DNA of 32,000 nt from an uncultured Erysipelotrichaceae bacterium (GCA_942493105.1 OW818668.1:1020001-1052000), one strand, 5' to 3'. Counted from the stretch's first letter, positions 10,139 through 28,037 are shown. Numbers and translations: made by a program. Notes: generated by a model from the letters alone, not told the origin.

Positions 10139-11746
10139 ATGAAGAAAATTCTATTAGTATTGGTAGCGTTAGCATTCATTGGCTCTACATTAACTGGATG
10201 TTCAAGTTATAAGGCACTCGACAAGAAAATTGCCGGCGAGATCACCATTATGTTGTGGTCAGGCGACGGCGTTTATGCTGAGGACATTGGCCATAAGAAC
10301 TTGACACCGGCTGATTTAAAGGGTCAAAACAACGCTGCAGTCTATGCAGTTGCGAAAGCTTTCAATGAAGTTTATCCGAATGTTAAAGTAAATGTATTTG
10401 CCAAGAGCGCAGGACCAAATGATGGCGGCGTATCCTGGACACAAGAATTAGAAAACTTCAAAGCTGAACACGGAAAATATCCTGATGTTTATGCTTCAAC
10501 CGATTTGCCAGGCGATGTTGCCAGAGGCTTCGTTGCTGATTTGTCCGTATTTAAGAATGATCCTTTATACAAATCATTCAATAAATCCGTCATGGCTATG
10601 ATGAACTACTATGGCTTCCAAGCCGGTATCCCACAGTTCCTACAACCTTGGGGCGTTTACATCAATAAAGCTTTGGCTGAAGAATACAACTTAGATGTTC
10701 CAGATCCTGATTGGACCATCGATGAATACACAGATTTCGTTAACTCTGCTGACGGTGTAAATTTCTGGGGCTCGATGGACGTCGAAATGGACTTCATCCG
10801 TACTGGTGTTAAAACATTTGAACAACAGATGTTAAACTATAAAGGCACTGGAGATTTCGTCAACGTTGCTTCTGACGAAGTTAAAGCCTTGCTAGACTAC
10901 GTTCCGGATTGGGCTTCTTCAGCTGTTTATCCACAAAGAGATTTAGGTTTAGTATCCGATGAAGTTTTCAATGCCAACTGGGGTTGGAGCCATAAATTCT
11001 TCTTGGAAAACAAGATCTTGACCAATGCTGGCGATCCTTGGATGATGGGCGACTGTGCCAATCCAACTCCTGGACACTGGGCTGCATGTAAATCCACAGA
11101 CTGGGATATTTACCCACGTCCGTCTACTCCTTATCAGAAGAACACCGTTGGTGTCGTATTGGATCCAATGGCTGTCTATAACCAATGTATGAATGATGGA
11201 AATGTTGCTTGTTCAACAGAAGAAACAGCTCAGATCAAATTGGCTTATACCTTTGCTTCATTCTTCGCTGGTGATACATCTGCTTGGCAGGCTCGCGCCG
11301 ACCAAACCTTCATGGATGGAGAAGCTGAAAAAACATCCTTGAATGATTCCTTACCACTCGTTACCGGAAAAGCCTTTGATGAACAAATGGCCATCTGGTA
11401 TTCCACTCCTACCCATGCTCGTTTCAAAGATGCAGCTGTTATGCCAGGTTGGCATGAAGTTCTGAGAATCTGGGAAGCTGGCCAGTTCTGGGCTATTTCA
11501 GACAAAGCAACCGTTTGGACCTATAATTATGAAGGTGCAAGCCGTCCTATTCTATATGAATGGTTGAATGCTTGGCAGGTTGATATTGCTGGTGCAGTTC
11601 GTACAGATGCCAATTGGCCAAATGAAGTGAAGTCAAGATTAGCGGATTGGAACACACAGTTCAATGCCCGTTACCAAGAATCTTCAAAGAGTTTAGTCAA
11701 AGGCTTAAAAGATTTCTACGGCTTCAAAGACGCAGACTTCAAATAA
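10139..11746 (+). CDS. Extracellular solute-binding lipoprotein of a CUT1-type sugar ABC importer (large LplA/LipO-like type)
   Basis: Strong SD AGGAGG 5 nt upstream. Signal peptide with lipobox 'STLTGC'. 535 aa with SBP-like content ('ITIMLWSG', 'YGFQAGIPQ'). Followed by a strong terminator. Confidence 0.85.
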   Translation: MKKILLVLVALAFIGSTLTGCSSYKALDKKIAGEITIMLWSGDGVYAEDIGHKNLTPADLKGQNNAAVYAVAKAFNEVYPNVKVNVFAKSAGPNDGGVSWTQELENFKAEHGKYPDVYASTDLPGDVARGFVADLSVFKNDPLYKSFNKSVMAMMNYYGFQAGIPQFLQPWGVYINKALAEEYNLDVPDPDWTIDEYTDFVNSADGVNFWGSMDVEMDFIRTGVKTFEQQMLNYKGTGDFVNVASDEVKALLDYVPDWASSAVYPQRDLGLVSDEVFNANWGWSHKFFLENKILTNAGDPWMMGDCANPTPGHWAACKSTDWDIYPRPSTPYQKNTVGVVLDPMAVYNQCMNDGNVACSTEETAQIKLAYTFASFFAGDTSAWQARADQTFMDGEAEKTSLNDSLPLVTGKAFDEQMAIWYSTPTHARFKDAAVMPGWHEVLRIWEAGQFWAISDKATVWTYNYEGASRPILYEWLNAWQVDIAGAVRTDANWPNEVKSRLADWNTQFNARYQESSKSLVKGLKDFYGFKDADFK

Positions 11747-11852: not shown

Positions 11853-13259
11853 ATGAAATCAAGCGCCATAAATACAAAAATAGTTGTCATCGGCGCAGGG
11901 AGCGCTTCCTTTGGATTAGTGAATTTAGGCGCCATCATACGTCATCCAAAATTAAAAGGAATCCACCTAAGTCTTGTTGATATCAATGAGTCAGGTTTGG
12001 GTTTGATCACTCAGTTGGCTCAACGGTTGAATCGTGAATGGGATGCGCAAATGACCATCACTTCGACTACTGATCGGACTGAAGTTTTATCAGGAGCAGA
12101 TTTTATCATCTTGTCGGTTGCGATCGATCGCGAACAATGTTGGAAACAGGATGTTGATATTGCTTTGAAATATGGCATACATCATTATGGTGAAAATGGT
12201 GGACCGGGTGCTTTGATGCATACTGCTCGTAATGTGGCTTTGATTTTGCCTATACTAAAAGATATAGAGCGATTGTGTCCTCAAGCTATGGTTTTAAATT
12301 TTACCAATCCTGTTCCACGCATCAATATAGCTGCTGCACGCTATACGAAAGTTAAAATGGTTGGGGTCTGTCATCAGATTGATTTTGGATATATGATGAG
12401 TGCTAAAATCCTACAAAGTGAGTTTGGATTTAAGATTCCCAAAGACTATCGCTTTACTTGGGATGGGGGCTGGGATCATTTCGGAAGCATGGTTCAACAG
12501 GCATCAGATCGCTTCGATATCTTAGCTGCAGGTATCAATCACTTTTCTTGGTATTTATCGATCAAAGACAAACAAACAGGTCAGGAACTCTTACCTTTGT
12601 TTAAAGAAAACTTTCTAAACAAATATCCTGAATTTGAACCTTATACCCGTAAGATCCTCAGTGTCTTCAAAGAATTGCCGATAGGTGGAGATTGTCATAT
12701 GTTGGAGTATTTGCCCTTTACCCATAACGATGCAAAGAAGAGTTGGGAACGATATGACATACAAATGTATCCGCTATTGAAAGCTGAAGCGGATCGCCAT
12801 GAAATGTGGAAAGAAATCGAAGAGATGGCCAGTGGCAAAGGCGATATCGATCATTTGCTGCATACCCATACTGAACGCGCTGAACAGATCATGTGTGCAA
12901 TGATGCATGATGAACCAATCATAGACCAAGCTGTGAACATTCCAAATCAAGGTTATATCACCAATCTTCCTGAAGGTGCCATCGTAGAAGTTCCCGCCAC
13001 GATCTCAAAAGAAGGTATAAAAGGCATGGTGGTTGGTCCTTTACCTGATATCGCAGCCCTGTGGTGTAGAAGACAGATTGAGGTCGCTGAAATGTCAGTT
13101 AAAGCCTCTGTGACAGGCGACAAAGCACTCATGCTTCAAGCCTTGTTGATGGATCCTATGATAGATGATATTGACCAAGCAGAAGCATTACTTGATGAAT
13201 ATTTATTGGCCAACGAAAAGTATCTTCCCCAGTTTTTTAAAAAAGGAGAATGGATATGA
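11853..13259 (+). CDS. GH4 family NAD+/Mn2+-dependent glycosidase (LplD / alpha-glycosidase-like; specificity unknown)
   Basis: Rossmann motif 'KIVVIGAGSASFG'. GH4 motifs 'LNFTNPV', 'VGVCHQ' and 'AGINHFSW'. 468 aa. The stop TGA overlaps the next ATG (ATGA at 13256-13259). Confidence 0.88.
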   Translation: MKSSAINTKIVVIGAGSASFGLVNLGAIIRHPKLKGIHLSLVDINESGLGLITQLAQRLNREWDAQMTITSTTDRTEVLSGADFIILSVAIDREQCWKQDVDIALKYGIHHYGENGGPGALMHTARNVALILPILKDIERLCPQAMVLNFTNPVPRINIAAARYTKVKMVGVCHQIDFGYMMSAKILQSEFGFKIPKDYRFTWDGGWDHFGSMVQQASDRFDILAAGINHFSWYLSIKDKQTGQELLPLFKENFLNKYPEFEPYTRKILSVFKELPIGGDCHMLEYLPFTHNDAKKSWERYDIQMYPLLKAEADRHEMWKEIEEMASGKGDIDHLLHTHTERAEQIMCAMMHDEPIIDQAVNIPNQGYITNLPEGAIVEVPATISKEGIKGMVVGPLPDIAALWCRRQIEVAEMSVKASVTGDKALMLQALLMDPMIDDIDQAEALLDEYLLANEKYLPQFFKKGEWI

Positions 13260-16159
13260 AAAGAATACCTGCCCTGTTCTTAACGATGATCTTGATCTTA
13301 AGTGGTCTTTCAGGTTGTCAAAGCAGCTCAAGTGTGAAAACCTACACCGATGCTCAGAAGGAAGAAGCATATGCTTATCTGCTTGAAGGCTTGAATCAAA
13401 GCACGCCTTTTTATGCGGATTATCAAAAAGAATTATCAAAACCAGGGATCCAAGAAGAAACTCAAATCAACACCGAGGCCTTGACGATTGGAGCCTATGG
13501 TTCGGTTGATTTTTCATTTAATCTTGCAAGCGCTTACACCTCTCAATTGCGTTTGGTGTATCAAGTTGCACCAGGCACTTTATTGTCTCCGATCTTATCA
13601 GTCAATATCAATGGAAAGTCACCTTTCGTAGAAGCTTTATCGATCGATGTGGCTTTGAATTGGTTTAGCGATACCTCACATTTTCCTTTGGATTCTTACC
13701 AAGACGAGTCCTTACCTTCACAAACTGTGGATACTTCAGTTAGATTCCTAGATTTCTATGATACTTTACACAGTAGTTCTCAACCTTTGAAGTTTGAATT
13801 TAAAGCAGGTGAGAACACAGTAAGTTTTACCAATGTTTCTTCGAGTCCACTGACGATTTTAAAAGTTAGTTTGATGCCGATCGATGAAAGACCAACTTAT
13901 GCTTCATATTCGGCAGGCTTAACGAAAACATCAAAACCCAATATTTTGGTTGACGCGGTACGTTATGCTTCAAAAAACTCATCGTTTGTTCGTTTGAGCT
14001 CATATGGTTCACCTTCAGTTTCTCCATATTCTGTGAAGACAAAACTATTAAATATCATTGATGGGATGGCTTGGAACAAAGCAGGGCAGTCTGTGTCTTA
14101 TACCGTGAATGTCGAAGAAAGCGGAGCATATGCTTTGGCTCTGCATTATTTAAACGACAAGACAGATTTCCAGGTCTTTAGATCGATTTTGATCGATGGG
14201 GTCATTCCCTTTAAAGAAGCACAAGCCTATGCTTTTGATTATACAGGTGGTGGTACTTGGCGCGTAGAAGTACTGCAAGATAACAATAAGAATCCGTATT
14301 TATTTGAACTATCAAAAGGAACCCATACGATTACGTTTGTGGCTGAATCTGAACCTTTGATTCCAGCCTTGACCACGATGCGTAATCTGATTGCTCATAT
14401 CAATGCCTTTGCATTGGATATACGAAAAATCACAGGAAGAGACATCGATCGTAACCGAACATGGAAATTGACCAATTTCTTACCAGAAACACAGAAGAAT
14501 CTAGAGTCTTATAAAGTTTTGATCAGTCGTTTGGTCAGTGATTTGTCTATTTATGCCAATAACGGGACCGCTTCTTCCGCTTTATCCTATATGATCAAAG
14601 CTTTGGTTAAGATAGATAAGATGCTTGAAAAACCTGATGAATTGCCTTTGTATCTGGATGATCTTTATAGTGCTACCGGTTCTGTTACAGAAATGCTAGG
14701 CAATACATTAACTTCACTTCAAAGTCAAGCCTTGTCTTTAGACAGCTTTGCGTTTTATACCGATAAACAACCGTTGATTGCGGAAGCATCATTTATGGAT
14801 GTTGCCAGTTCGTCGCTGCTTAGTTTCGTCAACTCTTTCACGTCAAAAAAATACATCGCTAAAAAAGATCCAAACGTTTTAAATGTCTGGGTCAATCGTT
14901 CGATTACTTATGTTGATACAATGCAGAAACTGGTCGATCAGACATTTACGGCACAAACTGGGATCAAAGTCAAGATTTCAGTCATGCCTGATGTCAATAA
15001 ACTGATCTTAGCTAATGCAACCAATGAAGCACCAGATGTCGCTTTGGGATTACCTTCTTATATGCCTTATGAATTTGCGATACGTGATGCTTCATATCAG
15101 CTGAGTTCTTTCCCTGACTTTTGGAAGACAGTGGCCAATATGCCAGCTGGATCCATGGTTCCATATGTCCTTAATGAACAAGTCTATGCAATTCCTGAAA
15201 CCTTAGATTTCCATGCGATCATTTATCGTAAAGACATTTTCGAGAATATTGATTTAACGGTACCTGACACTTGGCAAGATGTCATCGATATGTTACCTGA
15301 ACTTCAACGATATGGGATGAACTTCTATCATCTGACGGCAGGCGGAACTGCCTTGAAATGGTATTATCAGACCAGTCCTTTCGTTTATCAGTTTGAAGGT
15401 GAATTGTATGCGGATGATGGTTATAGCTCAAACATCGATTCGCCTGAAACGGTTGCGGGTTTAAAATTCATGACCGATTTGTTTATTAAATATGCGATTC
15501 CTGAACAAGTGGCTTCGTTTTATAACGGATTTAGATTTGGATCTTTACCGGTTGGGATCGCTGATTTTGCGACTTACCTACAAATCAAAAATGCAGCTTC
15601 TGAGCTGACTGGCTTATGGGCACTATCACCATATCCTGGTATTGAAAACAAAGAAGGTAAAATTCTTCGTTGGGACATCGTCAATGGGACTGCAGGCATC
15701 ATCTTTAAGAGTACTAAATTTGCAGACAATAGTTGGGACTTCATGAAGTGGTGGACTTCAACTGAGACTCAGACAGCTTTTGCGTATTCTCTGCAATCGA
15801 CTTATGGACCTGAATATGTCTGGTTATCCAGTAATCTGGAAGCGGTTCAAAATGCTCCGATCGATGCGGCCGATAAACAAGTCATGCTTGAACAATTCAA
15901 ATGGATCAATGATGTGCCTCGCTTACCTGGTGGCTATATGTTAGAACGAGGACTATCCGATATTTGGAACACAACTGTCCTACAAGGGACTCCGATCAGA
16001 GTTGCGATCGATCGTCAGAAGATCACCATCGATCGTGAAATTAAACGTAAGATGATTGAATTTGGATACATCAATGCGGATGGCAGTGCAGCTAAACCTT
16101 ATGTCATAAGAGGTGTCGATTGGATCCAAGCCCAAATCGATTCGGCTAAGGAGGATTGA
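13256..16159 (+). CDS. Giant lipoprotein: N-terminal ~535-aa extension (two CBM-like beta-sandwich segments plus a helical region) fused to a family-1 extracellular solute-binding domain
   Basis: ATG 13256 lies 8 nt after GGAG (ATG 13250 is too close to the SD). Lipobox 'LSGLSGC'. The C-terminal half from about nt 14870 is SBP-like ('LNVWVNRS', '[21 protein letters not shown]', '[15 protein letters not shown]'). The N-terminal half has no obvious family match by eye. Confidence 0.8.
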
Positions 16160-16160
16160 C

Positions 16161-17099
16161 ATGAAACTCTCACAACGCATCAGAAAAGCTTTTGTGGATA
16201 AAGCTGGCGAATCTACATTCATGGATTATATGACGATCTTTTGGATGTTGCTTCCGTATGCTTTGTTGTTCTCTTTGTTTGTTGCGATTCCTGTAGCTTT
16301 AGCCATAGGATTATCCCTGACTTACTTCAATACGATCCAGTTTCCTGAATTCAAAGGTTTCTTAAACTACATTACACTGTTGACTCAAGATGAAGTCTTC
16401 TTAAAATTCGTCTTGCCCAACACATTTAAATATGCCTTGATCATTGGACCAGGAGGTTATTTCCTGTCTTTTATCCTTGCGTGGATGTTGGCTCAAATCA
16501 CACCTAAAATGAGAACCATCATTGCTTTGGCTTTATATACCCCATCTATGGTTGGGGGTGTCTTTATCTCAGTCGTATGGAGAACCTTGTTTTCAGGGGA
16601 TGAGGCAGGCTATATCAATGCCTTACTGATGGAGTGGGGTTGGATCGTACGCCCCATTCAGTTCCTTCAATCGCCTGAATATCTCATGAATATTATGATC
16701 GTAGTAGGTCTTTGGTCAGCGATGGGGATTGGATTCTTGGCGATGTTGGCTGGGATCTTAAACACCAATGAAGAACTCTATGAAGCCGCCTATATCGATG
16801 GGATCAAGAATAAACTTCAAGAAGTCATCTACATCACCATTCCTTCCATGCGCTCACAGATGTTGTTTGGAGCTGTCATGGCGATCGTTGGGGCATTCAA
16901 CAGCGGCTGGATCGGAGTGGCTTTATCAGGTACAAATCCTACCCCTCAATATGCAGGCCAGCTCATCATCAATCATATTGAAGATTACGGCTTTATTCGA
17001 TATGAGATGGGTTATGCGGCTGCGGTATCTGTGGCATTACTGCTGATCATCTGGAGTTTTTCTAAAGTAGCTTACCGTTTATTCGGAGAAAGGGACTGA
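16161..17099 (+). CDS. Sugar ABC transporter permease (MalF/LplB-like), pair 1
   Basis: ATG 16161 lies 6 nt after AAGGAGG. Six TM helices. EAA loop '[23 protein letters not shown]'. Confidence 0.9.
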
Positions 17100-17100
17100 T

Positions 17101-17970
17101 ATGGCTTTCCAAGGTACGAAAATCAATCCTAAGCGATTTGATAAGTCACAGCTCAAGTTCTACATCGTTTTAGTTCCTATGGCTTTATTCATGGTCTTAC
17201 CGGTCATCTATATCGTCAACCAAGCCTTTAAACCTCTTGATGAACTCTTTATGTTTCCTCCTCGTTTCTTTGTCATAAAACCAACCTTTAAGAACTTCAC
17301 AGATCTGTTTAGGACAGCTTCTACGACAGGGGTTCCTATGTCTCGGTATCTGTTTAATTCCATCGTAGTGACCTTGGTTACAGTCTTTGCGAACATCTTG
17401 GTAACTGCTTCAAGTGCTTATGTCTTAAGTAAAAAGAAATTCAAACTCAAAGGCAGACTCTTTGCCTTAAATCAGATTGCCTTGATGTTTGTGCCGATCG
17501 CAGTAGCGATCCCACGCTTCTTGATCATTAAAAATGTTGGATTAAGCGATAATTTCTTAGCACATATCGTTCCTTTATTGGCCATGCCGATTGGGTTATT
17601 TTTAGTTAAACAATTCATGGATGACATACCAGATGCCTTAATAGAAGCTGCTCGATTAGATGGTGCCAATGATTTTCAGATCTTACTTAAGATCGTCATG
17701 CCTTTGGTTAAACCTGCTTTAGCGACTGTTGGGATCTTGACCTTCCAAGTCGTATGGAATGCGACTGAAAGTTCAAGTTTATACATATCCGATGAGACCT
17801 TAAAAACATTTGCCTTTTATCTAAGTACTTTGACCGCTTCTTCAAATACGATCGCAGGGGCAGGGATGTCTGCAGCAGCCGGTTTGATCATGTTCTTGCC
17901 TAATCTTATTATCTTTATGTTGCTGCAATCTAAGGTCATGAATACCATGACTCATTCTGGGATCAAGTAG
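17101..17970 (+). CDS. Sugar ABC transporter permease (MalG/LplC-like), pair 1
   Basis: Starts 1 nt after the upstream stop. EAA loop '[26 protein letters not shown]'. Six TM helices. Confidence 0.9.
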
Positions 17971-17978
17971 GTGCACCT

Positions 17979-20003
17979 ATGAAAAAGACACTTACACTGA
18001 TAAGTTTGATCATCCTATTGATGAGCATGAGTATCAAAGTCAACGCTTCTTCAGCGACTTCTCCAACTCGTACCTTAGACTTCAAATATAACTTAGTATG
18101 GACCCAAGATGCTTATTTACCTCAGTTAACGGTTACCAACCTTGGTTTAAAGAATCCAACTGATGCGATCATGGATCCCAATGATCATCTCTACATTGCT
18201 GATCGTGGTAACAAACGCATCGTGGAGTATGATACGACGACCAATACTTTGGTTAGAGTCATTACTCATCCTGCACTAAAAACCCCTACAGGTATTTTCT
18301 TAACCCAAAGCGGAGATATTTATGTTGCTGATACTACTGCAGAAGCTGTTATTCGATTTGATAAAGACGGCAACTACATCGAACAATTCAATCGTCCTAC
18401 CACGGCCTCTTTCGGCGATACTCCGTATAAACCCGCTAAAGTAGCGGTCGATAATCGAGGCAATCTGTATATCGTTTCAGAAGGCGTTTATAACGGAATC
18501 ATACAGTTATCATCGAGCGGAGAATTCTTAGGCTATTTCTCTTCCAATAAAGTTTCTTTGAATATTCTTCAGATGCTTCAAGATATCTTTTATACCGATG
18601 CTCAAAAAGCCTTATTGACAGGCAGAGTTCCAACGACCTTCTCCAATGTGTTTATGGATGAAGACGGGATCTTATATTCAACCACCATGGGTGGCATGAT
18701 GCATGGCGTTAAAAAACACAATACGGCTGGCCAAGATATGTTGAGCGAACGCTTTATTTGGGGAGCTGATGACTTCTCCGACATAACAGTCGACAAAGAT
18801 GGCATCATTTATGCGACTGCCAAATCGGGTCAGATCTTCGTTTATACCAATGATGGCCAATTCATATTCTTCTTTGGTTCATTCTATGGAGAATCGGATA
18901 TTGCTGGACTCTTTAGTTCATTGGTATCCATTGCGGTAGATTCTAAAGGCCAATTGTGGACGCTTGATTCTGAGAAATCATTCATTCAGTCTTTTAAAGC
19001 TACAGAGTATGCCCAAAGCATATATAAAGCCACCAAGCTGTTTTCTGAAGGAAGATATGATGAAGCTACAGTCATCTGGAATGATGTCTTAAGGCTCAAT
19101 CAAATGTCTGTGGTGGCTCATAACGGTATAGGTGCGAATCTCTTGTATCAGCAACGTTATAAAGAAGCCATGCTTCATTTTAGAGTCGCAGGCAATCGTT
19201 TCAATTACTCGCAAGCTTTTTGGGAAGTACGTAATACTTGGCTACAATCCCAGCTCAGTTTGATTTTAGGTTCATTTGTGGTTGTGTTTGGATCTTTGAG
19301 ATTGACACGCAAAGCTCGTAAAAAATCAAAATTCATCGCAAAAATGAAATCTTACTATAATCAATTCATCCATTATCGATTTGTCTCAGATGTCTTACTG
19401 GTGCTTAAAGTCATGCGTCATCCAATCGATAGTTTCTATGACATCAAAGCTAAGAAGGCAGGATCATTACTGAGCGCAAGCGTGGTCTATATCGGATTCT
19501 TCCTGATCTTTATTTGGTATACCTTAAGCAAAGGATTTATTTATCAATATCTTTTGATTGAAGATATTGATATGACAGCTGTCGTCATTGGTTTCTTCTC
19601 GCTGACCTTATTGTTTGTATTGTGTAATTATCTGGTGTCTTCGATCAATGATGGGGAAGGCGGTTTATTCGATTTGTTTAAGATGATGGCATATAGTTTT
19701 GGACCGATGATGATTGGGTATGTCCTGATCATTGGTTTATCCTATGTCTTTACTGAAAATGAAGCCTTCTTCTTACAAACGATTGAACAGATCGCTGTCA
19801 TTTGGACAGGCATCAATCTGTTTATGGGTATTCAAGAAACGCATAATTATGAAACAAAAGCAGCATTCAAAAGCATCATCATGACGATCTTGTTTATGTT
19901 GTTGATTGCGGTCATCTTAATGATCGTCATCTTGATGACTGAACAAGTCTATATGTTCTTTGAAGCTCTGTTCAAGGAGGCGCTACGTAATGTACTTTCC
20001 TAA
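17979..20003 (+). CDS. Secreted NHL-repeat beta-propeller plus TPR-like segment fused to a C-terminal Yip1-like polytopic membrane domain (function unknown)
   Basis: Signal peptide 'LLMSMSIKVNA/SS'. About six NHL-like blades ('HLYIADRGNKRIVEYD', 'DIYVADTTAEAVIRFDKDG', 'NLYIVSEGVYNGIIQLSSSG', 'GILYSTTMGG', 'GIIYATAKSGQIFVYTNDG', 'QLWTLDSEKSFIQSF'). TPR-like 'ATKLFSEGRYDEATVIWNDVLRLNQ...YQQRYKEAMLHF'. About 6 TM helices follow from about nt 19240, with 'HPIDSFYDIK' typical of Yip1-domain starts. Confidence 0.6.
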   Translation: MKKTLTLISLIILLMSMSIKVNASSATSPTRTLDFKYNLVWTQDAYLPQLTVTNLGLKNPTDAIMDPNDHLYIADRGNKRIVEYDTTTNTLVRVITHPALKTPTGIFLTQSGDIYVADTTAEAVIRFDKDGNYIEQFNRPTTASFGDTPYKPAKVAVDNRGNLYIVSEGVYNGIIQLSSSGEFLGYFSSNKVSLNILQMLQDIFYTDAQKALLTGRVPTTFSNVFMDEDGILYSTTMGGMMHGVKKHNTAGQDMLSERFIWGADDFSDITVDKDGIIYATAKSGQIFVYTNDGQFIFFFGSFYGESDIAGLFSSLVSIAVDSKGQLWTLDSEKSFIQSFKATEYAQSIYKATKLFSEGRYDEATVIWNDVLRLNQMSVVAHNGIGANLLYQQRYKEAMLHFRVAGNRFNYSQAFWEVRNTWLQSQLSLILGSFVVVFGSLRLTRKARKKSKFIAKMKSYYNQFIHYRFVSDVLLVLKVMRHPIDSFYDIKAKKAGSLLSASVVYIGFFLIFIWYTLSKGFIYQYLLIEDIDMTAVVIGFFSLTLLFVLCNYLVSSINDGEGGLFDLFKMMAYSFGPMMIGYVLIIGLSYVFTENEAFFLQTIEQIAVIWTGINLFMGIQETHNYETKAAFKSIIMTILFMLLIAVILMIVILMTEQVYMFFEALFKEALRNVLS

Positions 20004-22353
20004 ATTGAAATTTAAACAGGTCATTCCTGTTGTGTTGGGGGTGGTGATGAGTGTTCAAGCCATATATGCAACCTATATTCCCAATGCACATGATACAAAA
20101 CTGCCTCCGGATACGATTACGTATGAGATCATGGATCCCAGTAGTTTTGAGTTGCTTTATGAGACAACTGACTTTAAATATTACTTTAAAGATGAACGAG
20201 ATGTGATGGCCGTTGTGGATAAACGCAATGGATATACCTGGAAGACAGGTCTAGACATCGCTTTCAACAAGACTTTAGAAGATGCCTGTGATTTGGTTCC
20301 TGATGATCAAAAGATCAACTGTGAGCCTTTAGAAGATCGTTTAAATACAACTTATACGGGTATGGCCAATTCATTGATCACAGTTGAATATTATGATGTA
20401 TCAAAGTCGATCAAACGTATTTCCAGTGCTTCGATCAACAATGTGAAGAGTACTTTAGGCAAAGTCAATAATTCTGACGATCATTATCGTTTGGATGTCA
20501 CTTTCTCAGAGATCCAATTGAATGTAAAAGTTCATCTGTTGTTTGATGAAGATGGCTTTACTTTAGAAATACGCGATGAAGAGATCACAGGTGATGGTCA
20601 ATCTGTTTTAGCTGCAATTCAATTGATGCCTTTCTTTGGGGCATCAGGCGGACAGAAACTATATTGGGATAATGAATTGGGTGACTTTAAGAAAAAAGTC
20701 CCCAATAAGATGATTGAAGGTTATGTCTTGGTTCCGGATGGTCCAGGCGCTTTGATTCGCTTTGAAGACAGAAATGTAGGATTGACAGCATATACTGGGG
20801 ACATCTATGGTAAAGACCCTGGTGAATGTCAATATTTCTACACCAATGAACAAGGCTTCTTTCCTTTCAAGAACCCAACGATGCCGATTTATGGGATCGC
20901 TCACGGAAATCGCCAAGCTGCCTTTATTGCTTTCTCAACCAAAGGCGCACCATATATGACACTTAATGTTTCTCCAGAAGAAGACATTACTTACTATACT
21001 TATGCGTATCCTCGTTTTGAATACAATCTCTTATTTCATCAAGTCTACAATAAACGAGGTGATGGTTACTTCACATTGATGAAAGAAAGACGTCACTATG
21101 ATGTGGGTATGCGTTATGAATTCTTAGCCAATGATACCGATCGACCTGCAGATTATGTCGGGATGGCATTGACTTATCGTGATTATTTACTCAAGAACAA
21201 GTTATTACCAGATCAAACTCAAAATAAAGATGACATCGGCATTCGTTTAGACTTTGTGATGGCGGATGTTAAAAAGAGTATCTTAGGGGTTGAAGATGTT
21301 GTGGTGACCAGAGCATCCGATGTCAAGAAAATTCTAAATCAACTTCATGAAGATGGCGTCTTCAACATCAACAGTGGATTATTAGGTTGGCAATCTGGTG
21401 GTATCACCTCAGGTCATCCTGGAAAAACAGAGTGGTCTAATGCGATTGGCTCAAAGAGTTCCTTTATGGATCTTATCGAAACAGCCACAGCATTAGGTTA
21501 TGATGTTTCGCTGAGCCAAGACTACATCAAGATCCATCGCGATCAAGTCAATTATGAAACCTCTGCTGCTCGACATGTCAACAGTTGGTATTTGGAAACA
21601 CGGATGTGGGGAGAATATCCAGTCACTGAGTTTGGTTTTGCGAAACCAACGAAATCTGCGGCTTGGATCAAATCTCAAAGTACTGCATTGGCTAAACTCA
21701 AGGTCACTTCGTTTACGATCGATGGGATCTCAAGCACTTTGACCAGTGATTATGATGGTGGCTTTACGTCGCTTGAAGAGTCCATTGCGTTATATCAGAA
21801 AGTTCTTTCAGAACTAGATCCAGCCATCAAGATATCGATGAATGGACCCAATGATTATCTATGGAACTATGTTGACCGCTACTTAAGTGCACCTGTCTTT
21901 TCAACTCAGTTCTTGATTGAAACAGATACCGTGCCTTTCTTACAGCTGGTCTTAAACGATACGATGGAAATGTATGCACCGTATTCTAATTTTTCGTTTT
22001 ATACTCAAAAAGATGTCTTAAGGATGATCGATTATAATCTTTATCCTTCCTTTGCGTTATCCCAAGATCCTGCTTATGTCTTAGCTTTGACCAATGCGAA
22101 TAAATTTTATTCTACAGAATTCACAGAATATGAGTTGTTGATCAATACGATCTATGATGAAGTCAATGGTTCACTAAAAGAAGTCATTGGTGATCAATGG
22201 GTCGATCGTGAAGTTTTAGCCAATGGTATCATCCTTAACACTTATGCTTCAGGAAAACAGATCTTGATCAACTATACTCAAGATCCAACGACTTACCAAG
22301 GAAAAACGGTTAGAGCCCTCTCAGCGATGGTTTTCAAGGAGCTTGCCCAATGA
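19990..22353 (+). CDS. N-terminally membrane-anchored or secreted 787-aa protein of unknown function with glycoside-hydrolase-like architecture
   Basis: ATG 19990 lies 9 nt after AAGGAGG and overlaps the upstream gene by 14 nt. Hydrophobic N-terminus 'VIPVVLGVVMSVQAIYA'. No motif I can assign to a named CAZy family. Alternating beta/alpha-like segments and a C-terminal beta-rich tail 'GIILNTYASGKQILINYTQDPTTYQGKTVRALSAMVF'. Confidence 0.5.
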   Translation: MYFPKLKFKQVIPVVLGVVMSVQAIYATYIPNAHDTKLPPDTITYEIMDPSSFELLYETTDFKYYFKDERDVMAVVDKRNGYTWKTGLDIAFNKTLEDACDLVPDDQKINCEPLEDRLNTTYTGMANSLITVEYYDVSKSIKRISSASINNVKSTLGKVNNSDDHYRLDVTFSEIQLNVKVHLLFDEDGFTLEIRDEEITGDGQSVLAAIQLMPFFGASGGQKLYWDNELGDFKKKVPNKMIEGYVLVPDGPGALIRFEDRNVGLTAYTGDIYGKDPGECQYFYTNEQGFFPFKNPTMPIYGIAHGNRQAAFIAFSTKGAPYMTLNVSPEEDITYYTYAYPRFEYNLLFHQVYNKRGDGYFTLMKERRHYDVGMRYEFLANDTDRPADYVGMALTYRDYLLKNKLLPDQTQNKDDIGIRLDFVMADVKKSILGVEDVVVTRASDVKKILNQLHEDGVFNINSGLLGWQSGGITSGHPGKTEWSNAIGSKSSFMDLIETATALGYDVSLSQDYIKIHRDQVNYETSAARHVNSWYLETRMWGEYPVTEFGFAKPTKSAAWIKSQSTALAKLKVTSFTIDGISSTLTSDYDGGFTSLEESIALYQKVLSELDPAIKISMNGPNDYLWNYVDRYLSAPVFSTQFLIETDTVPFLQLVLNDTMEMYAPYSNFSFYTQKDVLRMIDYNLYPSFALSQDPAYVLALTNANKFYSTEFTEYELLINTIYDEVNGSLKEVIGDQWVDREVLANGIILNTYASGKQILINYTQDPTTYQGKTVRALSAMVFKELAQ

Positions 22354-23378
22354 AAATCTTTAAGAAAAAAGATGCGACGATGATTGCTAAACCTAAGAAA
22401 AAGAAAAAAAGTGGTTTTAAAGAAATAAGCAACCGTTCAGGGTATAAGTTCTTCTTGCCTTGGATGATTGGATTCTTGATTTTTACCGCTTTTCCGTTTG
22501 TGTATACGATCTATTTGAGTTTCAATCAAGTTAAGCTCACTGTTTTTGGTTGGCAAGCCACTTTCAACGGAATTGCGAATTATGTTTCAGCACTTCTAAG
22601 AAATCCGGATTATACCCCAGCCTTGATTCAGTTCATCTTAGCGGAAGTGGTCTATGTGCCTGTCATCGTGACCGTGGCCTTGATCCTTGCGATCTTGATG
22701 AATGGCGATTTTAAATTCAGGACTGTATTTAGAGTCATTTATTTCTTGCCGGTCATCGTTATTTCAGGGACCGTCATGACACAGTTGATGAGCAGTGGGA
22801 ATGTCCAATTGGGAAATGTAAGACAAGTCTTTATCTTTCAGATTTTATCTTCATACTCACCAGCTTTAGCGGACATCGTTGTATTCCTATTCAATAACTT
22901 TGCGATCGTCTTATGGTTCTCAGGGATCCCAATCGTCTTATTCCTCAATGGTCTGCAAAAGATCAACACTTCATTATTTGAAGCAGCTCAGATCGATGGG
23001 GCAACCTCATGGCAGATCTTATGGAAAATCACTTTACCGATCATACGACCCATCATCTTGGTTGCGACCATCTTTACGATCGTTCAATTGGGGATGTTTC
23101 CCATCAATCCCGTCTACGGGATGATCCAGACCGCCATCTTCGATACAGTGGCAGGACTTGGGGTCGCATCGGCTTATGCTTGGATCTACTCGCTGACGGT
23201 CATCATCTTACTGGGCATTGCCTTCTTCTTACTGAAAGATCATTCTAAAGATTATCAATATGTGGATGTGGTCAGACTACAAGATATTAAACTTCAAAAA
23301 ATGAGAAAACGCGTTAAACGGCAGCAAGAATGGAATGAATTCTTTAGAAAGAAAGGCGTCAAACATGGAAAAAACTAA
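22350..23378 (+). CDS. Sugar ABC transporter permease (MalF-like), pair 2, with a basic cytoplasmic C-terminal tail
   Basis: ATGA overlap with the upstream gene; SD AAGGAG 8 nt upstream. EAA loop 'EAAQIDGATSWQILWKITLPIIRPI'. Tail 'KLQKMRKRVKRQQEWNEFFRKKGVKHGKN'. Confidence 0.9.
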   Translation: MKIFKKKDATMIAKPKKKKKSGFKEISNRSGYKFFLPWMIGFLIFTAFPFVYTIYLSFNQVKLTVFGWQATFNGIANYVSALLRNPDYTPALIQFILAEVVYVPVIVTVALILAILMNGDFKFRTVFRVIYFLPVIVISGTVMTQLMSSGNVQLGNVRQVFIFQILSSYSPALADIVVFLFNNFAIVLWFSGIPIVLFLNGLQKINTSLFEAAQIDGATSWQILWKITLPIIRPIILVATIFTIVQLGMFPINPVYGMIQTAIFDTVAGLGVASAYAWIYSLTVIILLGIAFFLLKDHSKDYQYVDVVRLQDIKLQKMRKRVKRQQEWNEFFRKKGVKHGKN

Positions 23379-24324
23379 ACGAATCTGGGCTTTAGTCAAA
23401 CGAAAACTGTTGGGTTATAACCTAAGTGACGGCTATCTCTATAAGACAGCTGTCTATATCTTACTGATTGCGATCGCGTATGTTTTCTTGTATCCGCTTT
23501 TACGCATGATTTCATATTCCTTCATGTCGACTCAAGACATCATCAATCCTGAGATCGACTGGATCCCAATCAGTCCAACCTTGACCAATTTAAAAGTTGC
23601 TTGGACCGTTATGAGTATGCCGTGGACTTTATTGAACTCACTGTGGTTTGCGGGAGCTTTAGCATTGGCTCAAACTTTGATTTCAGCCCTAACAGGGTAT
23701 GCGTTTGCCCGTTATGAATTTAAGTTTAAAAGTTTCTGGTTTGGGATGGTATTGATGAGTTTCGTTATTCCAATTCCAGTTGTTTTGATTCCACGTTGGA
23801 TGATGTTTGTCACCACGCAAAATATCTTAGATTTTAAGTTGATTGGAACTGTTATTCCGCAGCTGATGTTGGCGATCGCAGGTCAAGGTGTGTATTCAGC
23901 CATCTTGATCTTGATCTTCTATAACTTCTTTAAGATGATTCCAGTTGTTTTGGATGAAGCGGCTAAGATCGATGGAGCCAGTAATCTACAAGTCTTTTAT
24001 CACATCATCCTAAAGATGTCGGTACCCACCATCATCACCGTCTTTCTGTTTGCCTTTGTTTGGAATTACAATGAAACCTATGTGACGGGAACCTTCTTGC
24101 GTTCTGCCTTAAAAGTCATGCCGATGCAGTTGGGACTCTTTGACTCCATCTTTGAGAAGATGTCTGCCCCGATCCCAAATGCGCCTGGAGGGCAATTTAG
24201 GCTGAATGAATCGTATAAGATGGCCGCAACACTGATCACGATGGCACCTATGATGATCATGTATCTATTCGTTCAAAAACAATTTGTCGAAGGGATTGAA
24301 AAAACAGGGATTACAGGAGAATAA
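23365..24324 (+). CDS. Sugar ABC transporter permease (MalG-like), pair 2
   Basis: EAA loop 'EAAKIDGASNLQVFYHIILKMSVPTI'. Six TM helices. The start is ambiguous (ATG 23365 or 23335); both overlap the upstream gene. Confidence 0.88.
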   Translation: MEKTKRIWALVKRKLLGYNLSDGYLYKTAVYILLIAIAYVFLYPLLRMISYSFMSTQDIINPEIDWIPISPTLTNLKVAWTVMSMPWTLLNSLWFAGALALAQTLISALTGYAFARYEFKFKSFWFGMVLMSFVIPIPVVLIPRWMMFVTTQNILDFKLIGTVIPQLMLAIAGQGVYSAILILIFYNFFKMIPVVLDEAAKIDGASNLQVFYHIILKMSVPTIITVFLFAFVWNYNETYVTGTFLRSALKVMPMQLGLFDSIFEKMSAPIPNAPGGQFRLNESYKMAATLITMAPMMIMYLFVQKQFVEGIEKTGITGE

Positions 24325-24325
24325 A

Positions 24326-25330
24326 TTGGATAAAATCAGAGCCGTTAATTTAGGGGGTTGGTTGGTTTTAGAGCATTGGATGAGGCCTACATTATTTGAA
24401 GGCATCAAAGGCTATGATGAGACTGAGTTCAGTCTGCAAGCCAAGGATCTTAAAAAACAACTCGATGATCATCGAGAAAGCTTCATCGTTGAAGAAGACT
24501 TCAAATGGATCAAAGACCACGGCTTAAACGTGGTCAGAGTTCCTTATCCGTATTGGTTGTTTGGCGATATTGAGCCCTATTATGGCTGTGTCGATAAGTT
24601 AGATCAAATCATGGATTGGGCACATAAATATGATTTAAAAGTACTTTTAGATTTACACACAGCACCTGGTTGTCAAAATGGTTTTGACAATGGAGGTCAG
24701 TTGGGTGTTTTGACTTGGCATACCAAACCTGAAAATCTTGCTTTAACTTTAGAGATCTTAGATAAAGTTGCCTTAAGATATAAGAATCATCCGGCTTTAT
24801 GGGGCATGCAGGTGCTCAATGAACCGCATTGGACCTATGAGATCTCGTTTATGGAAGCCTTCTATGAAGATGCGTATCGTCATCTTAGAGCCATCCTCAA
24901 ACCTGAAACTGAGATCGTTTTTCATGATGCCTTTAGACACAAAGCTTGGAAGTCTTTCTTTGAGAATAAGACCAATGTCATCTTGGATCTTCATCTGTAT
25001 CAAGGCTTCGATGAGAAATTCGCTCAAGCAGGAATAGATAAAAACGTCGTGTATCCTTTAGAACATTACCCCGCAATCCTCAGTGAGATATCATCCTATG
25101 TGCGTTGTATCGTAGGGGAATGGTCACTGGGTCTTAATCCCAAAAACTTTAAAGACGTGGATGACTTTAATAAAACCTGTGGTTTAAGAGCCTTTGGAGC
25201 CACTCAACTCTTAGCCTTTGAGCAGTGTTATGGTTGGGTTTTTTGGAACTATAAAATTGAAGATGTAAACAGTGGCTGGAACTTTAAGAGTCTGGTTGAG
25301 AAAGGGATCTTACCTCATGATTATCGCTAA
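24326..25330 (+). CDS. GH5 exo-beta-1,3-glucanase-like enzyme (fungal Exg1-like subfamily), cytoplasmic
   Basis: Motifs 'RAVNLGGWLVLEHWMRPTLF', 'LLDLHTAPGCQNGFDNGG', 'MQVLNEP' (acid/base) and 'VGEWSLG' (nucleophile). Likely TTG start at 24326, 5 nt after AGGAGA and 1 nt after the permease stop. The track ORF start at 24284 is also a TTG and lacks an SD. Confidence 0.88.
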   Translation: MDKIRAVNLGGWLVLEHWMRPTLFEGIKGYDETEFSLQAKDLKKQLDDHRESFIVEEDFKWIKDHGLNVVRVPYPYWLFGDIEPYYGCVDKLDQIMDWAHKYDLKVLLDLHTAPGCQNGFDNGGQLGVLTWHTKPENLALTLEILDKVALRYKNHPALWGMQVLNEPHWTYEISFMEAFYEDAYRHLRAILKPETEIVFHDAFRHKAWKSFFENKTNVILDLHLYQGFDEKFAQAGIDKNVVYPLEHYPAILSEISSYVRCIVGEWSLGLNPKNFKDVDDFNKTCGLRAFGATQLLAFEQCYGWVFWNYKIEDVNSGWNFKSLVEKGILPHDYR

Positions 25331-27107
25331 GAGAGTGTTACTTGTCTTATTATTATCGCTGAGTTTGATGTCATGTAAGAAGACCCCTGAAATCGTCCTA
25401 ACTCCTCTTGAAGAAAAATTAGCTTCCATGACTTTAGATGAAAAACTAGGTCAAATGATCCAAGCTGAACGCAATGCGGTCAATACAGCCATCATCAATC
25501 AGCTCAATCTGGGCTCTATTTTAAGTGGAGGAGGATCTCATCCAAGTCCCAATACCGTAGATGCTTGGTTAGCTCTAACCACCAAGATGAACAATGCCTC
25601 TAAAAACGGTTCAGCAGGCTTACCTTTGCTTTATGGCGTGGATGCAGTCCATGGCCATAATAATGTGGAGGGTTTGGTTTTGTTTCCCCACAACAGTGCT
25701 TTAGGGGCGACCCATGATGAGAATTTACTTGAAAGAATAGGTCAAGCCGTTGGGGTTCAGTTAAGAGCGACCGGGATTGCGTGGAATTTTGCGCCATGTT
25801 TGGCTGTTGTTCAAGATATTCGTTGGGGAAGAGCCTATGAAGGTTTCTCAGAAGAACCCAATTTGGTGGCTTCTTTAGGAGCTGCCTACATCAAAGGACT
25901 TCAATCCGAAGGCATCATGGCCACTGCGAAACATTATCTTGCGGATGGCGGAACCGATTTTGACAGTTCTAAAAACAGTTATCCAATCGATCAAGGCAAT
26001 GTGTCTTTGACAGAAGCAGAAGTCAGAGCACTACACCTTATTCCTTATATAAAAGCCATTCAAGAAGGCAACGTTAAAAGCATCATGGTTTCCTTTAGTT
26101 CCATCAACAATCAAAAGATGCATGGATCAAAATATTGGATCACCACGGTTTTAAAAGAAGAACTCGAGTTTGATGGGATCGTCATCTCCGATTGGGAAGC
26201 CATTCATCAATTACCCGGTTCTTTGATTTATCAAGTTTCTTCCGCCATCAATGCGGGCGTGGATATGCTGATGGAACCCTATCAATATAAAGAAGTCCTT
26301 GCGGTCATGAAAAGAGCTGTTGAGAATGGAACCATCAAGATGGAAAGAATCGATGATGCGGTCATGCGTATTCTTAAAGTCAAAGATGATCTTAAGTTGT
26401 CCACAGGTTTAGCAAGTGCCTCCATCGACATGGAAGGAGATAAAGCATTGGCTCGAGAAGCCGTTGCGAAGTCTCAAGTCTTACTTAAAAATGATGGCGT
26501 CTTGCCTTTAGCGAAGAACACCGATATATTACTCATTGGTCCTGGTATCGATAATGTTGGTTATCAAGCAGGGGGTTGGTCCTTCTCTTGGCAAGGTGAA
26601 AAAGACAATACCCATTTTCCCAACGCAACGACGCTTTTAGAAGCATTCACAGCGATTGCACAAGCCAATGGGGCTCGTGTTTATACCCAACTTAAAGATG
26701 CTTCTAAAGCCGATGTGGTGGTACTGGTATTGACAGAAGATCCCTATGCGGAAGGCGTAGGCGATACGAAGACCTTGAGTTTGACTTCTGGTTTAGCCCA
26801 TCCTGATAATGCAGATGCGATCAGACAGGCAAAACTCATCAAGAAACCCGTTATCACATTATTGATGAGTGGAAGACCTTTGATCGTAGCAGATGAACTA
26901 GAACATTGGGATGCGTTTGTGATGAGTTGGTTGTTTGGAACCGAAGCACAAGGGGTAACCGATGTGTTGTATGGCGATGTGAATTTCAGCGGAACTCTAA
27001 GTTTTACATGGCCAAAGATCCCTGAAGCCAATACGACATCTTCAATGAATCCAGATCGTAAACCTGATGATATCCAATTTGAGATCGGATCAGGATTGAC
27101 ATACTAA
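25317..27107 (+). CDS. GH3 exo-beta-glucanase / beta-glucosidase lipoprotein (plant ExoI / ExoP-like), surface exposed
   Basis: Lipobox 'LSLMSC' when started at ATG 25317. Motifs 'LDEKLGQMIQAER', 'LYGVDAVHGHNN', 'DIRWGRAYEGFSEEP', 'KHYLADGGT' and 'IVISDWEAI' (nucleophile Asp). Confidence 0.9.
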   Translation: MIIAKRVLLVLLLSLSLMSCKKTPEIVLTPLEEKLASMTLDEKLGQMIQAERNAVNTAIINQLNLGSILSGGGSHPSPNTVDAWLALTTKMNNASKNGSAGLPLLYGVDAVHGHNNVEGLVLFPHNSALGATHDENLLERIGQAVGVQLRATGIAWNFAPCLAVVQDIRWGRAYEGFSEEPNLVASLGAAYIKGLQSEGIMATAKHYLADGGTDFDSSKNSYPIDQGNVSLTEAEVRALHLIPYIKAIQEGNVKSIMVSFSSINNQKMHGSKYWITTVLKEELEFDGIVISDWEAIHQLPGSLIYQVSSAINAGVDMLMEPYQYKEVLAVMKRAVENGTIKMERIDDAVMRILKVKDDLKLSTGLASASIDMEGDKALAREAVAKSQVLLKNDGVLPLAKNTDILLIGPGIDNVGYQAGGWSFSWQGEKDNTHFPNATTLLEAFTAIAQANGARVYTQLKDASKADVVVLVLTEDPYAEGVGDTKTLSLTSGLAHPDNADAIRQAKLIKKPVITLLMSGRPLIVADELEHWDAFVMSWLFGTEAQGVTDVLYGDVNFSGTLSFTWPKIPEANTTSSMNPDRKPDDIQFEIGSGLTY

Positions 27108-27126
27108 AAAGCGCTTTGCGCTTTTT
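27106..27126. terminator. Bidirectional terminator between the convergent GH3 lipoprotein and GH16 lipoprotein genes
   Basis: AAAAAGCGC-ttt-GCGCTTTTT with A-run and T-run flanks on both strands. Confidence 0.7.
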
Positions 27127-27146: not shown

Positions 27147-28037
27147 CTACTTCTTAGTTGCCAAGATGGCTGGCATTTGAGGACTTTGGTATACACGGAT
27201 GTAATCGACCTGCATGGTTTGTGGCCAACCTGTTTCTGCAATCCCTTGAGCTCCGCCCCAATCTCCTCCAACGGCCGTATTGACGATCAAGAAGAATTTG
27301 CGGTCAAAGGGCCATGCTTTGGAAGTCGGACAATTCAAATAAAGTCCAGGTGCGAAGCGATACATGAACTTACCGTCGATGTAGAATCTGATCTGATCCG
27401 GTAACCACTCTACAGTATAAAGATGAAAGGCATCCCCATCTTTGATCGTTGTATCAAAGCCTTGCTGAGTGCCTTTTTTATGGTTATAGGAAGCGGTATG
27501 AACCGTGCCGTAGACTCGATCAGGGGCATATCCTACATATTCTACGATGTCGATTTCACCTGAATTAGGCCAAGTGCCATAGGCAGATGAACTTGTCGGC
27601 ATCATCCATACGGCAGCCCAAGAACCTTTATTTTCTGGCATTTTCGCATAGACATCGATCTTGCCGTATAAGAAGTCTGCTTTATTGCGGGTGATCATGC
27701 GCGATGAGGTATAGTTCTTGCCTTCAAAGGTTTCTTTGCGGATCTCGATGTTCAATAAGCCGTCTTTGACAGTCGAATTAAGGCCGTTGGTGTAGTATTG
27801 AAGTTCATTATTGCCCCAACCGTTGCCGCCGATTTCATAGGTCCAATTGTCTAAGTTGACTTGTGTCCCATCAAACTCTTCAGCCCATACCAAATCATAG
27901 GTCAAACTGTTGAGATCATAGGTATAACCCATGGCTTTACAGGCCGTGGTTGAAGGTTCAGGCTCTTCTTTTTTGATACAGCTGCTGAGTGAGGAGATCG
28001 CAATGATCCCAATCAATAGGGTCTTTAGTGTTTTCAT
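27147..28037 (-). CDS. GH16 endo-beta-1,3-glucanase (laminarinase) lipoprotein, surface exposed
   Basis: Lipobox 'SLSSC'. Catalytic motif 'GEIDIVEYVG' plus 'WAAVWMM' and 'NTAVGGDWGG'. 296 aa. Confidence 0.9.
   Translation of the reverse strand: MKTLKTLLIGIIAISSLSSCIKKEEPEPSTTACKAMGYTYDLNSLTYDLVWAEEFDGTQVNLDNWTYEIGGNGWGNNELQYYTNGLNSTVKDGLLNIEIRKETFEGKNYTSSRMITRNKADFLYGKIDVYAKMPENKGSWAAVWMMPTSSSAYGTWPNSGEIDIVEYVGYAPDRVYGTVHTASYNHKKGTQQGFDTTIKDGDAFHLYTVEWLPDQIRFYIDGKFMYRFAPGLYLNCPTSKAWPFDRKFFLIVNTAVGGDWGGAQGIAETGWPQTMQVDYIRVYQSPQMPAILATKK

Follow-up and report, generated by a model that had tools for sequence, protein, structure and literature searches.

Here we describe a gene and its genomic setting in a 32,000-nucleotide stretch of DNA from an uncultured Erysipelotrichaceae bacterium (GCA_942493105.1 OW818668.1:1020001-1052000), hereafter the window. 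The gene encodes a 787-residue protein of the Pfam family DUF5696 and stands in a set of transporter genes within a locus for beta-glucan use. The gene and the regions of its product lie at the following window positions:

19990..22353, + strand: DUF5696 gene (open reading frame [ORF]; PF18952, 481 bits; ribosome-binding site AAGGAGG).
20017..20070, + strand: N-terminal hydrophobic helix, residues 10-27 (hydropathy scan; helix 8-23 in the AlphaFold2 [AF2] model).
20137..21144, + strand: N-terminal beta-sandwich, residues ~50-385, with insert 93-126, C100/C111, and the loop P249-D250-G251-x-G253 (AF2; covariation; invariant residues).
21145..22185, + strand: junction helix ADYVGMA..YR.YL and (beta/alpha)8 barrel, residues ~386-732 (AF2; HMMER profile; hhalign; column statistics).
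21721-21723, 21925-21927, and 21988-21990, + strand: codons of the nucleophile-equivalent D578, of D646, and of the invariant N667, respectively (column statistics).
22186..22350, + strand: C-terminal beta-sandwich, residues 733-787, with invariant Y752, N761, and Y762 (AF2 strands 737-783; invariant residues).

The ORF runs from an ATG at 19990 to 22353 and encodes 787 amino acids plus a stop; its longest version begins at a TTG at 19960 and ends at the same position. A ribosome-binding site, AAGGAGG, is located at 19975-19981, 8 nucleotides 5' of the ATG. The 5' neighbor, which we call NHL-Yip1, extends past this ATG, and the two genes overlap by 14 nucleotides. Searches with the 787-residue protein returned 540 homologues at E<=1e-3 from a word-indexed database and, when the search was exhaustive, 4516 clusters at 50% identity (2462 of them with E<=1e-30). 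The same gene was also present on a contig of a metagenome-assembled genome (MAG) at 93% identity. The homologue counts confirm that the ORF is a genuine gene and not a product of chance. An earlier note on this DNA, made from the sequence alone, had called the same 787-residue reading frame, and both the ribosome-binding site and the homologues uphold that call; every peptide quoted in the note was found in the translation.

The protein belongs to PF18952 (DUF5696) with an E of 6e-144 and a score of 481.3 bits against a gathering cutoff of 25.6, and the match covers residues 159-778, corresponding to model positions 4-611 of 612. Such a match to a domain of unknown function was what the earlier note had anticipated. 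A scan of NCBIfam returned no match, and even with the Pfam cutoff relaxed to an E of 10, no weak glycoside hydrolase (GH) family emerged, in keeping with the note's view that the protein has no recognizable CAZy family motif. In the literature, we found no paper mentioning DUF5696, PF18952, or the eight-gene module described below. The family is thus already catalogued in Pfam as a DUF, and the module is undescribed in the literature found.

An AF2 model built on a 40-sequence alignment (pLDDT 87.9, pTM 0.89) revealed, in order, a helix (residues 8-23), a beta-sandwich (~50-385) into which a helical segment (93-126) is inserted, a conserved junction helix (389-402), a (beta/alpha)8 barrel (~418-732), and a six-strand beta-sandwich (737-783). 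This order reproduced the layout that the earlier note had read by eye, namely, a beta-rich N-terminal third, a central barrel, and a C-terminal sandwich. The agreement extended to individual strands, given that the segments IGIRLDFV, VFNINS, DVSLSQD, SFTID, and KISMN, picked by eye, coincided with predicted barrel strands 1-5 (418-423, 460-465, 505-511, 574-578, and 614-618). The segment VIPVVLGVVMSVQAIYA, within helix 8-23, is the sole hydrophobic segment (residues 10-30 in a hydropathy scan), so that scan and model agree on the single N-terminal hydrophobic segment that the note had also seen. This helix could serve as a signal anchor or, with cleavage at AIYA/T, as a signal peptide. Within the N-domain insert, C100 and C111 covary perfectly among the orthologues (both present in 87, both absent in 104). 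Their covariation fits a disulfide and is therefore consistent with an extracytoplasmic location. We conclude that the DUF5696 protein is extracytoplasmic and sits on the outside of the cytoplasmic membrane, to which one N-terminal helix tethers it. Some orthologues are longer: four proteins from Izemoplasmatales/Tenericutes (P0105, P0124, P0042, and P0044; 950-967 residues) and P0133 (1053 residues) carry an N-terminal insertion or extension of ~170-260 residues ahead of the DUF5696 profile. The extra region of P0133 gave a weak match to CBM_4_9 (E 5e-4), below threshold.

Which known enzymes does this fold resemble? A Foldseek comparison with the PDB placed the GH129-like enzyme DagB first (5opq; E 2e-29, TM 0.71) and the GH129 enzyme NagBb second (5wzn; E 4e-26, TM 0.73), where the TM scores of the GH129-type matches, 0.71-0.74, are normalized to the target. 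The next tier comprised GH101 (E ~1e-16), followed by GH36 and GH31 (E 1e-13 to 1e-11, TM 0.34-0.47). A mixed profile of 68 orthologues and paralogues matched both DagB and NagBb by sequence (E ~1e-5), in the junction helix (ADYVGMA..YR.YL versus DYVDMAKVYQ) and in strands 2-3 (GWQxGG..GHP versus DGWAQPGYDNGHP). For hhalign, relatives of DagB were taken from marine metagenome contigs and then aligned; this comparison gave a probability of 97.8% and an E of 8e-13 over 596 columns spanning all three domains, and the result was stable to alignment parameters. Identity to the GH129-type enzymes amounts to 12-16%. Neither a phmmer search with the single protein nor an ortholog-only profile gave a useful match in the PDB, and similarity to GH129 at the family level was thus not found. 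A subprofile of residues 540-735, the second half of the barrel, gave no GH129 match in the PDB, so that HMMER did not corroborate the mapping of catalytic residues in that half, and a 185-residue fragment of DagB gave no match in the protein database. Taken together, the hhalign, profile, and fold matches establish that the DUF5696 ectodomain is a remote homologue of GH129 and GH129-like glycosidases. GH129 was also the best match among the candidate folds that the earlier note had listed.

DagB (ZGAL_3152; 5opq, 8rzk) is an exo-alpha-1,3-(3,6-anhydro)-D-galactosidase from Zobellia galactanivorans (PMC5698469). Like DUF5696, it consists of a distorted N-terminal beta-sandwich, a TIM barrel, and a C-terminal Ig-like domain, and the two have the motifs ADYVxMAK.Y, VxPxxxG, xPxP(L/F)(F/L), and xNF in common. 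DagB is a soluble periplasmic enzyme of a carrageenan locus, whereas DUF5696 is membrane tethered and encoded in an ABC transporter operon. The residues essential to DagB are D486, E517, and E531 in the barrel, plus D202 contributed by the N-domain of the partner monomer (PMC5698469); the three barrel residues have no conserved acidic counterparts in the DUF5696 family. NagBb, an alpha-N-acetylgalactosaminidase from Bifidobacterium bifidum, has a similar fold and a local sequence match in strands 2-3 (E 4e-5), but the column equivalent to its nucleophile is variable in DUF5696, its Glu478 has no equivalent there, and its substrate, mucin alpha-GalNAc, belongs to an unrelated context. GH101 (EngBF, 2zxq; SpGH101, 5a55) and the clan GH-D families GH36 and GH31 share the architecture of a beta-sandwich and a (beta/alpha)8 barrel with DUF5696 but show no sequence signal, and their catalytic motifs are absent. 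Clan GH-D (GH27/GH31/GH36) is marked by a nucleophile Asp on strand 4, in a KxD or WxDM motif, and an acid/base Asp on strand 6; DUF5696 has no KxD motif, and its D646, which follows strand 6 in a loop, is missing from distant members.

We then asked whether the catalytic residues of the GH129-type enzymes are retained. The mapping of these residues rests on profile alignment and strand topology, not on superposition, and only residues 371-519 pass a strict posterior cut in the hhalign alignment. In a low-confidence region of that alignment, the column of the DagB nucleophile D486 falls on G579 of the window protein, with D578 adjacent, at the end of strand 4 (SFTIDGIS); counting from the anchor Pro553 leads to the same spot (578/579). 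Among 191 orthologues, position 578 is Glu in 59, Asp in 51, Ser in 23, Gly in 21, Thr in 14, and Ala in 13, next to an invariant G579, and the orthologues without an acid at 578 still sit in intact modules. Likewise, both 578 and 579 lack an acid in 32 of 93 paralogues. Within the Erysipelotrichaceae clade of the window protein, 578 is always acidic but switches between Asp and Glu in close relatives. On this mapping, therefore, the nucleophile Asp conserved in GH129 (D435 in NagBb, D486 in DagB) is not a conserved residue of the DUF5696 family.

Similar results were obtained for the acid/base. With low confidence and a register uncertain by several residues, hhalign places DagB E517 in a gap before strand 5 and E531 on N626. 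By topology, the two would be expected where strands 5 and 6 end, and neither strand end held a conserved acid equivalent to NagBb E478 or DagB E517 or E531. Strand 5 ends in the invariant P620-N621, and positions 618, 619, 622, 626, and 633 are variable. D622 was discarded as a conserved acid/base, being Asp in the nearest relatives only and becoming Asn, Gln, Glu, or Ala even inside the clade of the window protein. The acids invariant among the orthologues are D250, D421, D426, D505, D646, D675, and D681. Of these acids, D250, in the N-domain PDGxG loop, and D/E681 are the only ones retained in a set of 108 members that extends to the most distant relatives. As it stands where helix 7 ends, D/E681 is probably part of the barrel's bottom face. 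D426 and D646 were rejected as a universal relocated pair, as both are lost in the most distant members. No invariant carboxylate pair was found in the barrel across these 108 diverse members, and the paired acids at strand ends that the earlier note had proposed to look for were likewise not conserved among them. The residues that are invariant throughout the family are P249-D250-G251-x-G253, Y389/G391/A393/Y396, G466, G471, N621/Y623, P649, N667, D/E681, Y752, and N761-Y762, several of which are located in the flanking sandwiches. Among the orthologues, the top face of the barrel is strongly conserved (D426, H529, N621, Y623, W625, Q640, D646, Y665, and N667), and the presumed top-face residues are kept within a substrate group and differ between groups.

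The DUF5696 gene has a fixed genomic setting. The genes that accompany it in the window are as follows:

10139..11746, + strand: small solute-binding lipoprotein, 535 residues, lipobox LTGC (PDB 22hh, "solute-binding protein family 1," E 9e-11; no Pfam match).
13250..16159, + strand: giant lipoprotein solute-binding protein (SBP), 969 residues, with C-terminal SBP_bac_8 (present in every complete module).
16113..17970, + strand: first ABC permease pair, 16113-17099 and 17101-17970 (BPD_transp_1; UgpA/E- and MalF/G-like).
17979..20003, + strand: NHL-Yip1 protein, 674 residues, with signal peptide, NHL beta-propeller, TPR-like region, and Yip1 multipass membrane domain (Pfam NHL and Yip1; transmembrane scan).
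22350..24324, + strand: second ABC permease pair, 22350-23378 and 23335-24324, the first of which overlaps the DUF5696 stop by 4 nucleotides.

We compared gene order across 80 orthologous genome loci and 10 paralogues, scoring the loci whose contigs were long enough. The order of the module is small SBP, giant SBP, permease, permease, NHL-Yip1, DUF5696, permease, permease. NHL-Yip1 lies directly upstream of DUF5696 in 69 of 69 loci, a permease pair lies downstream in 73 of 73, and the full module is present in all 53 complete orthologous loci. All 10 paralogues (22-30% identity), including the most distant that could be retrieved, have the same cassette. NHL-Yip1 and DUF5696 share 8-17 nucleotides in the window and at the loci of the seven closer paralogues; in the distant loci L103 and L104, a gap of 17-24 nucleotides separates them. 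DUF5696, NHL-Yip1, and the giant SBP diverge at about equal rates (in distant modules, a median of ~45% identity), and the first permease pair retains 61-69%. Modules were found in Erysipelotrichaceae, Acholeplasma, Haloplasmataceae, Izemoplasmatales, gut Lachnospiraceae and Roseburia, Christensenella, Halanaerobiales, Paenibacillus, and Treponema.

By its sequence, the 535-residue protein is a divergent family-1 SBP lipoprotein. The first ~520 residues of the giant SBP gave no Pfam or PDB sequence match; its homologues in other modules are 960-1190 residues long. The NHL propeller of the 674-residue protein is six bladed and resembles the PknD sensor (E 6e-15), and the permease encoded at 22350-23378 (+) has an unusually basic N-terminal tail (KPKKKKKSGFKE) before its first transmembrane helix. 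With two SBPs and four permeases, the module has no ATPase gene. A GH4 gene, 11853-13259 (+), stands between the two SBP genes in 6 of the 80 loci, all of them close relatives of the window, and looks like a clade-specific insertion into the module. The lipoprotein SBPs, the MalF/G-like permeases, and an ATPase usually encoded elsewhere are features that the module shares with the CUT1 importers of Gram-positive bacteria, in which an SBP and two permeases work with a common MsmK/MalK ATPase. However, we know of, and found, no CUT1 system in which two permease pairs, an SBP of ~1000 residues, an NHL-Yip1 protein, and a GH-like protein are fixed together.

The enzymes beside the module differ from locus to locus. 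A BNR sialidase and GH84 adjoin the module of L081; PF10091 (GH144-like) and a GH94 sophorose-type phosphorylase adjoin those of L082 and L083; GH16 is the neighbor in L086; and GH30 and a CBM4_9 protein are the neighbors in L087/L088. In L105 (Paenibacillus thiaminolyticus, JARLKG010000029.1), a Peptidase_M60 gene lies downstream and a MalK-type ATPase gene lies directly upstream of the giant SBP, which suggests a glycoprotein- or mucin-directed version of the module with its own ATPase. No obvious glycan-active gene was present next to the modules of L103 and L104. On one Haloplasmataceae contig (JARDZP010000008.1), two complete modules adjoin (L019 and L088), each with its own DUF5696 paralogue, one beside GH16/GH3-type genes and the other beside two GH30 genes and a CBM4_9-rich protein. 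Three Treponema MAGs from termite gut (L063, L067, and L069) carry a whole Firmicute-type module in diderm spirochaetes, implying horizontal transfer and function in a periplasmic setting. A paper on GH94, GH149, and GH161 describes, in Acholeplasma laidlawii PG-8A, a cluster with "two permeases," GH16, GH3, and "no SBP," adjoining an SBP-bearing ABC cluster (PMC6484121). What that paper treats as two clusters may be one copy of the eight-gene module.

In the window, the module stands among genes for a GH30, an MFS transporter, ROK and LacI proteins, two GH16s, two GH3s, a GH2, a GH4, a GH5-like protein, a GH1, and two ABC systems. The region thus combines the regulator, transporter, and cognate GHs, here for beta-1,3/1,6-glucan, by which Gram-positive polysaccharide utilization loci are recognized. 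These data show that the copy of the module in the window is dedicated to beta-1,3/1,6-glucan (laminarin). The features immediately downstream of the module are as follows:

24284..25330, + strand: GH5-like protein, apparently cytoplasmic (Pfam; N terminus).
25272..27107, + strand: GH3, with a lipobox if translation starts at an internal Met (Pfam; N terminus).
27106..27126, + strand: intrinsic terminator following the second GH3, the sole convincing one between 9.5 and 28.5 kb.
27147..28037, - strand: lipoprotein GH16 laminarinase, lipobox LSSC (Pfam GH16; laminarinase 3iln, E 1e-73).

The longest form of the GH3 at 25272-27107 starts from a GTG, and a start at the internal Met gives MIIAKRVLLVLLLSLSLMSC with a lipobox; its product is probably a surface lipoprotein beta-glucosidase. 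The GH16 at 27147..28037 is the obvious extracellular endo-enzyme of the locus. The position of the terminator places DUF5696 inside a long operon. A promoter scan yielded 41 sites, compared with 50.2 expected in shuffled sequence, and was set aside. The GH30 gene at the left edge was considered as a pseudogene and rejected as such, since its reading frame is open to the end of the window.

What, then, does DUF5696 do in these modules? The reading that we favor, and to which we would give an even chance, is that DUF5696 is a glycosidase-derived, largely noncatalytic glycan-handling subunit that works with NHL-Yip1 beside two ABC translocators. A classical laminarin glycosidase is disfavored because the family is bound to the transporter cassette rather than to a substrate, because the canonical catalytic positions are unconstrained and there is no universal carboxylate pair, and because each locus brings its own extracellular enzymes. 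A role in contact with glycan is favored over a purely structural one because the top face of the barrel is group specific and some relatives have carbohydrate-binding module (CBM)-like inserts. According to this model, DUF5696 would not be the depolymerase; it would descend from a glycosidase but would itself no longer require the classical catalytic pair. The old active-site face of the barrel would probably bind chains or oligosaccharides released by the lipoprotein GH16 and GH3 and would then present the glycan to the two binding proteins and the permease pairs. Docking to the invariant partners would be the task of elements invariant in the family, namely, the loop of the N-domain, the junction helix, and the sandwich at the C terminus. 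Residual or noncanonical cleavage could occur in some clades, including that of the window, with its acid at 578, but it would not be the conserved function. Of the two possibilities that the earlier note had left side by side, a surface glycoside hydrolase or a glycan-binding pseudo-enzyme, the second is favored by the lack of a conserved pair, and the notion of an enzyme specific to this locus is not. Nor do the data support action on the beta-glucan polymer, which the note had placed before import, as the same family and cassette stand beside enzymes for different substrates and a GH16 laminarinase is already present.

A functional analogy can be drawn to the surface glycan-binding proteins (SGBPs) of Sus-like systems in Bacteroidota. 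SGBPs of the SusE/F type are cell surface, noncatalytic, glycan-specific accessory proteins. Like them, DUF5696 would be a surface protein without catalysis, specific for a glycan, fixed beside a transporter, and diverging with the substrate. The fold, the type of transporter (TonB-dependent SusC/D), and the envelope differ, and no homology is claimed.

Several observations weigh against this reading. We infer the complex of DUF5696 with its partners from gene order and gene overlap only. The mapping of DagB D486, E517, and E531 is confident only for residues 371-519 and otherwise follows strand topology. The conserved top face of the barrel would also fit an active site with relocated residues, and an acid at the nucleophile-equivalent position is kept in ~60% of orthologues, in 66% of paralogues, and throughout the Erysipelotrichaceae clade. 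The nucleophile alone is common to DagB and NagBb, and their acid/base positions differ, so that a third solution is conceivable (PMC5698469).

These same observations bear on an alternative that we regard as possible but doubtful, namely, that DUF5696 is a true surface GH or transglycosylase that founds a new GH129-related family and trims laminarin or its oligosaccharides at the transporter. In this clade, the nucleophile would be Asp/Glu578, where strand 4 ends, with either Asp646, in the loop beyond strand 6, or Asp622 serving as the acid/base. The fold and the remote homology do point to retaining glycosidases, the window protein has D578, D622, and D646, and its whole clade has Asp or Glu at 578. 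The conservation of the barrel top face among orthologues suits an enzyme, as does the inserted CBM4_9-like region in some relatives, and the ortholog invariants H529, W533, N616, and F668-F670 differ in the paralogues, as specificity subsites would. However, the residue at 578 alternates between Asp and Glu in close relatives and is Ser, Gly, Thr, or Ala in 81 of the 191 orthologues, with intact modules; position 622 varies among Asp, Asn, Gln, Glu, and Ala, and neither D646 nor D426 is universal. Moreover, GH129, GH101, GH31, and GH36 are all alpha-glycosidases, but the target here is beta-glucan; members of the family also occur in loci for unrelated substrates; and extracellular GH16 and GH3 enzymes are already encoded in the locus.

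Could DUF5696 instead touch no glycan and be a pure scaffold that brings NHL-Yip1, the giant SBP, and both permease pairs together in one complex? Its obligate adjacency to NHL-Yip1 and the permeases, whatever the substrate, would be explained. So would the finding that the family invariants, instead of forming a carboxylate pair, cluster in the C-terminal sandwich, the junction helix, and the loop of the N-domain. We nevertheless consider a scaffold unlikely, given that paralogue divergence (22-30% identity) tracks the type of substrate, that the top face is group specific, as a ligand-contacting surface would be, and that a CBM-like insertion occurs in some relatives. Very improbable, in our view, is a role on something common to all modules rather than on the imported glycan, for instance, a partner protein that it processes or matures, or a component that is linked to lipid or belongs to the envelope. 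The module and its PDGxG/N667 core are invariant across different cargo enzymes, as such a role would predict, yet the wall-less Acholeplasma, Izemoplasma, and Haloplasma, the walled Firmicutes, and the diderm Treponema have no envelope polymer in common.

Beyond the favored reading of DUF5696 as a noncatalytic glycan-handling subunit, we suggest, tentatively, that DUF5696 and NHL-Yip1 are signature subunits of an undescribed multicomponent machine for glycan capture and import in monoderms, also acquired by some Treponema. It is equally tentative that the parts form one complex, which would comprise two ABC translocators, a CBM-bearing SBP of ~1000 residues, a second SBP, a beta-propeller/Yip1 platform, and a glycosidase-derived pseudo-enzyme. 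The usual picture of sugar uptake in Gram-positive bacteria has one binding protein and two permeases. In all 90 loci examined here, members of a family of ~4,500 sequence clusters stand in the same fixed module of eight genes, and two proteins of that module, one of them a glycosidase look-alike, are unaccounted for by any transporter model. If DUF5696 proves to be catalytic, it would represent a new GH129-related GH family with relocated catalytic residues. If the proposed machine exists, it would be a Gram-positive functional counterpart of Sus-like systems, possibly for the uptake of long oligosaccharides. Should the module indeed operate as a single machine, it would constitute a common, unrecognized route for the uptake of beta-glucans and host glycans, with DUF5696 as its genomic marker.

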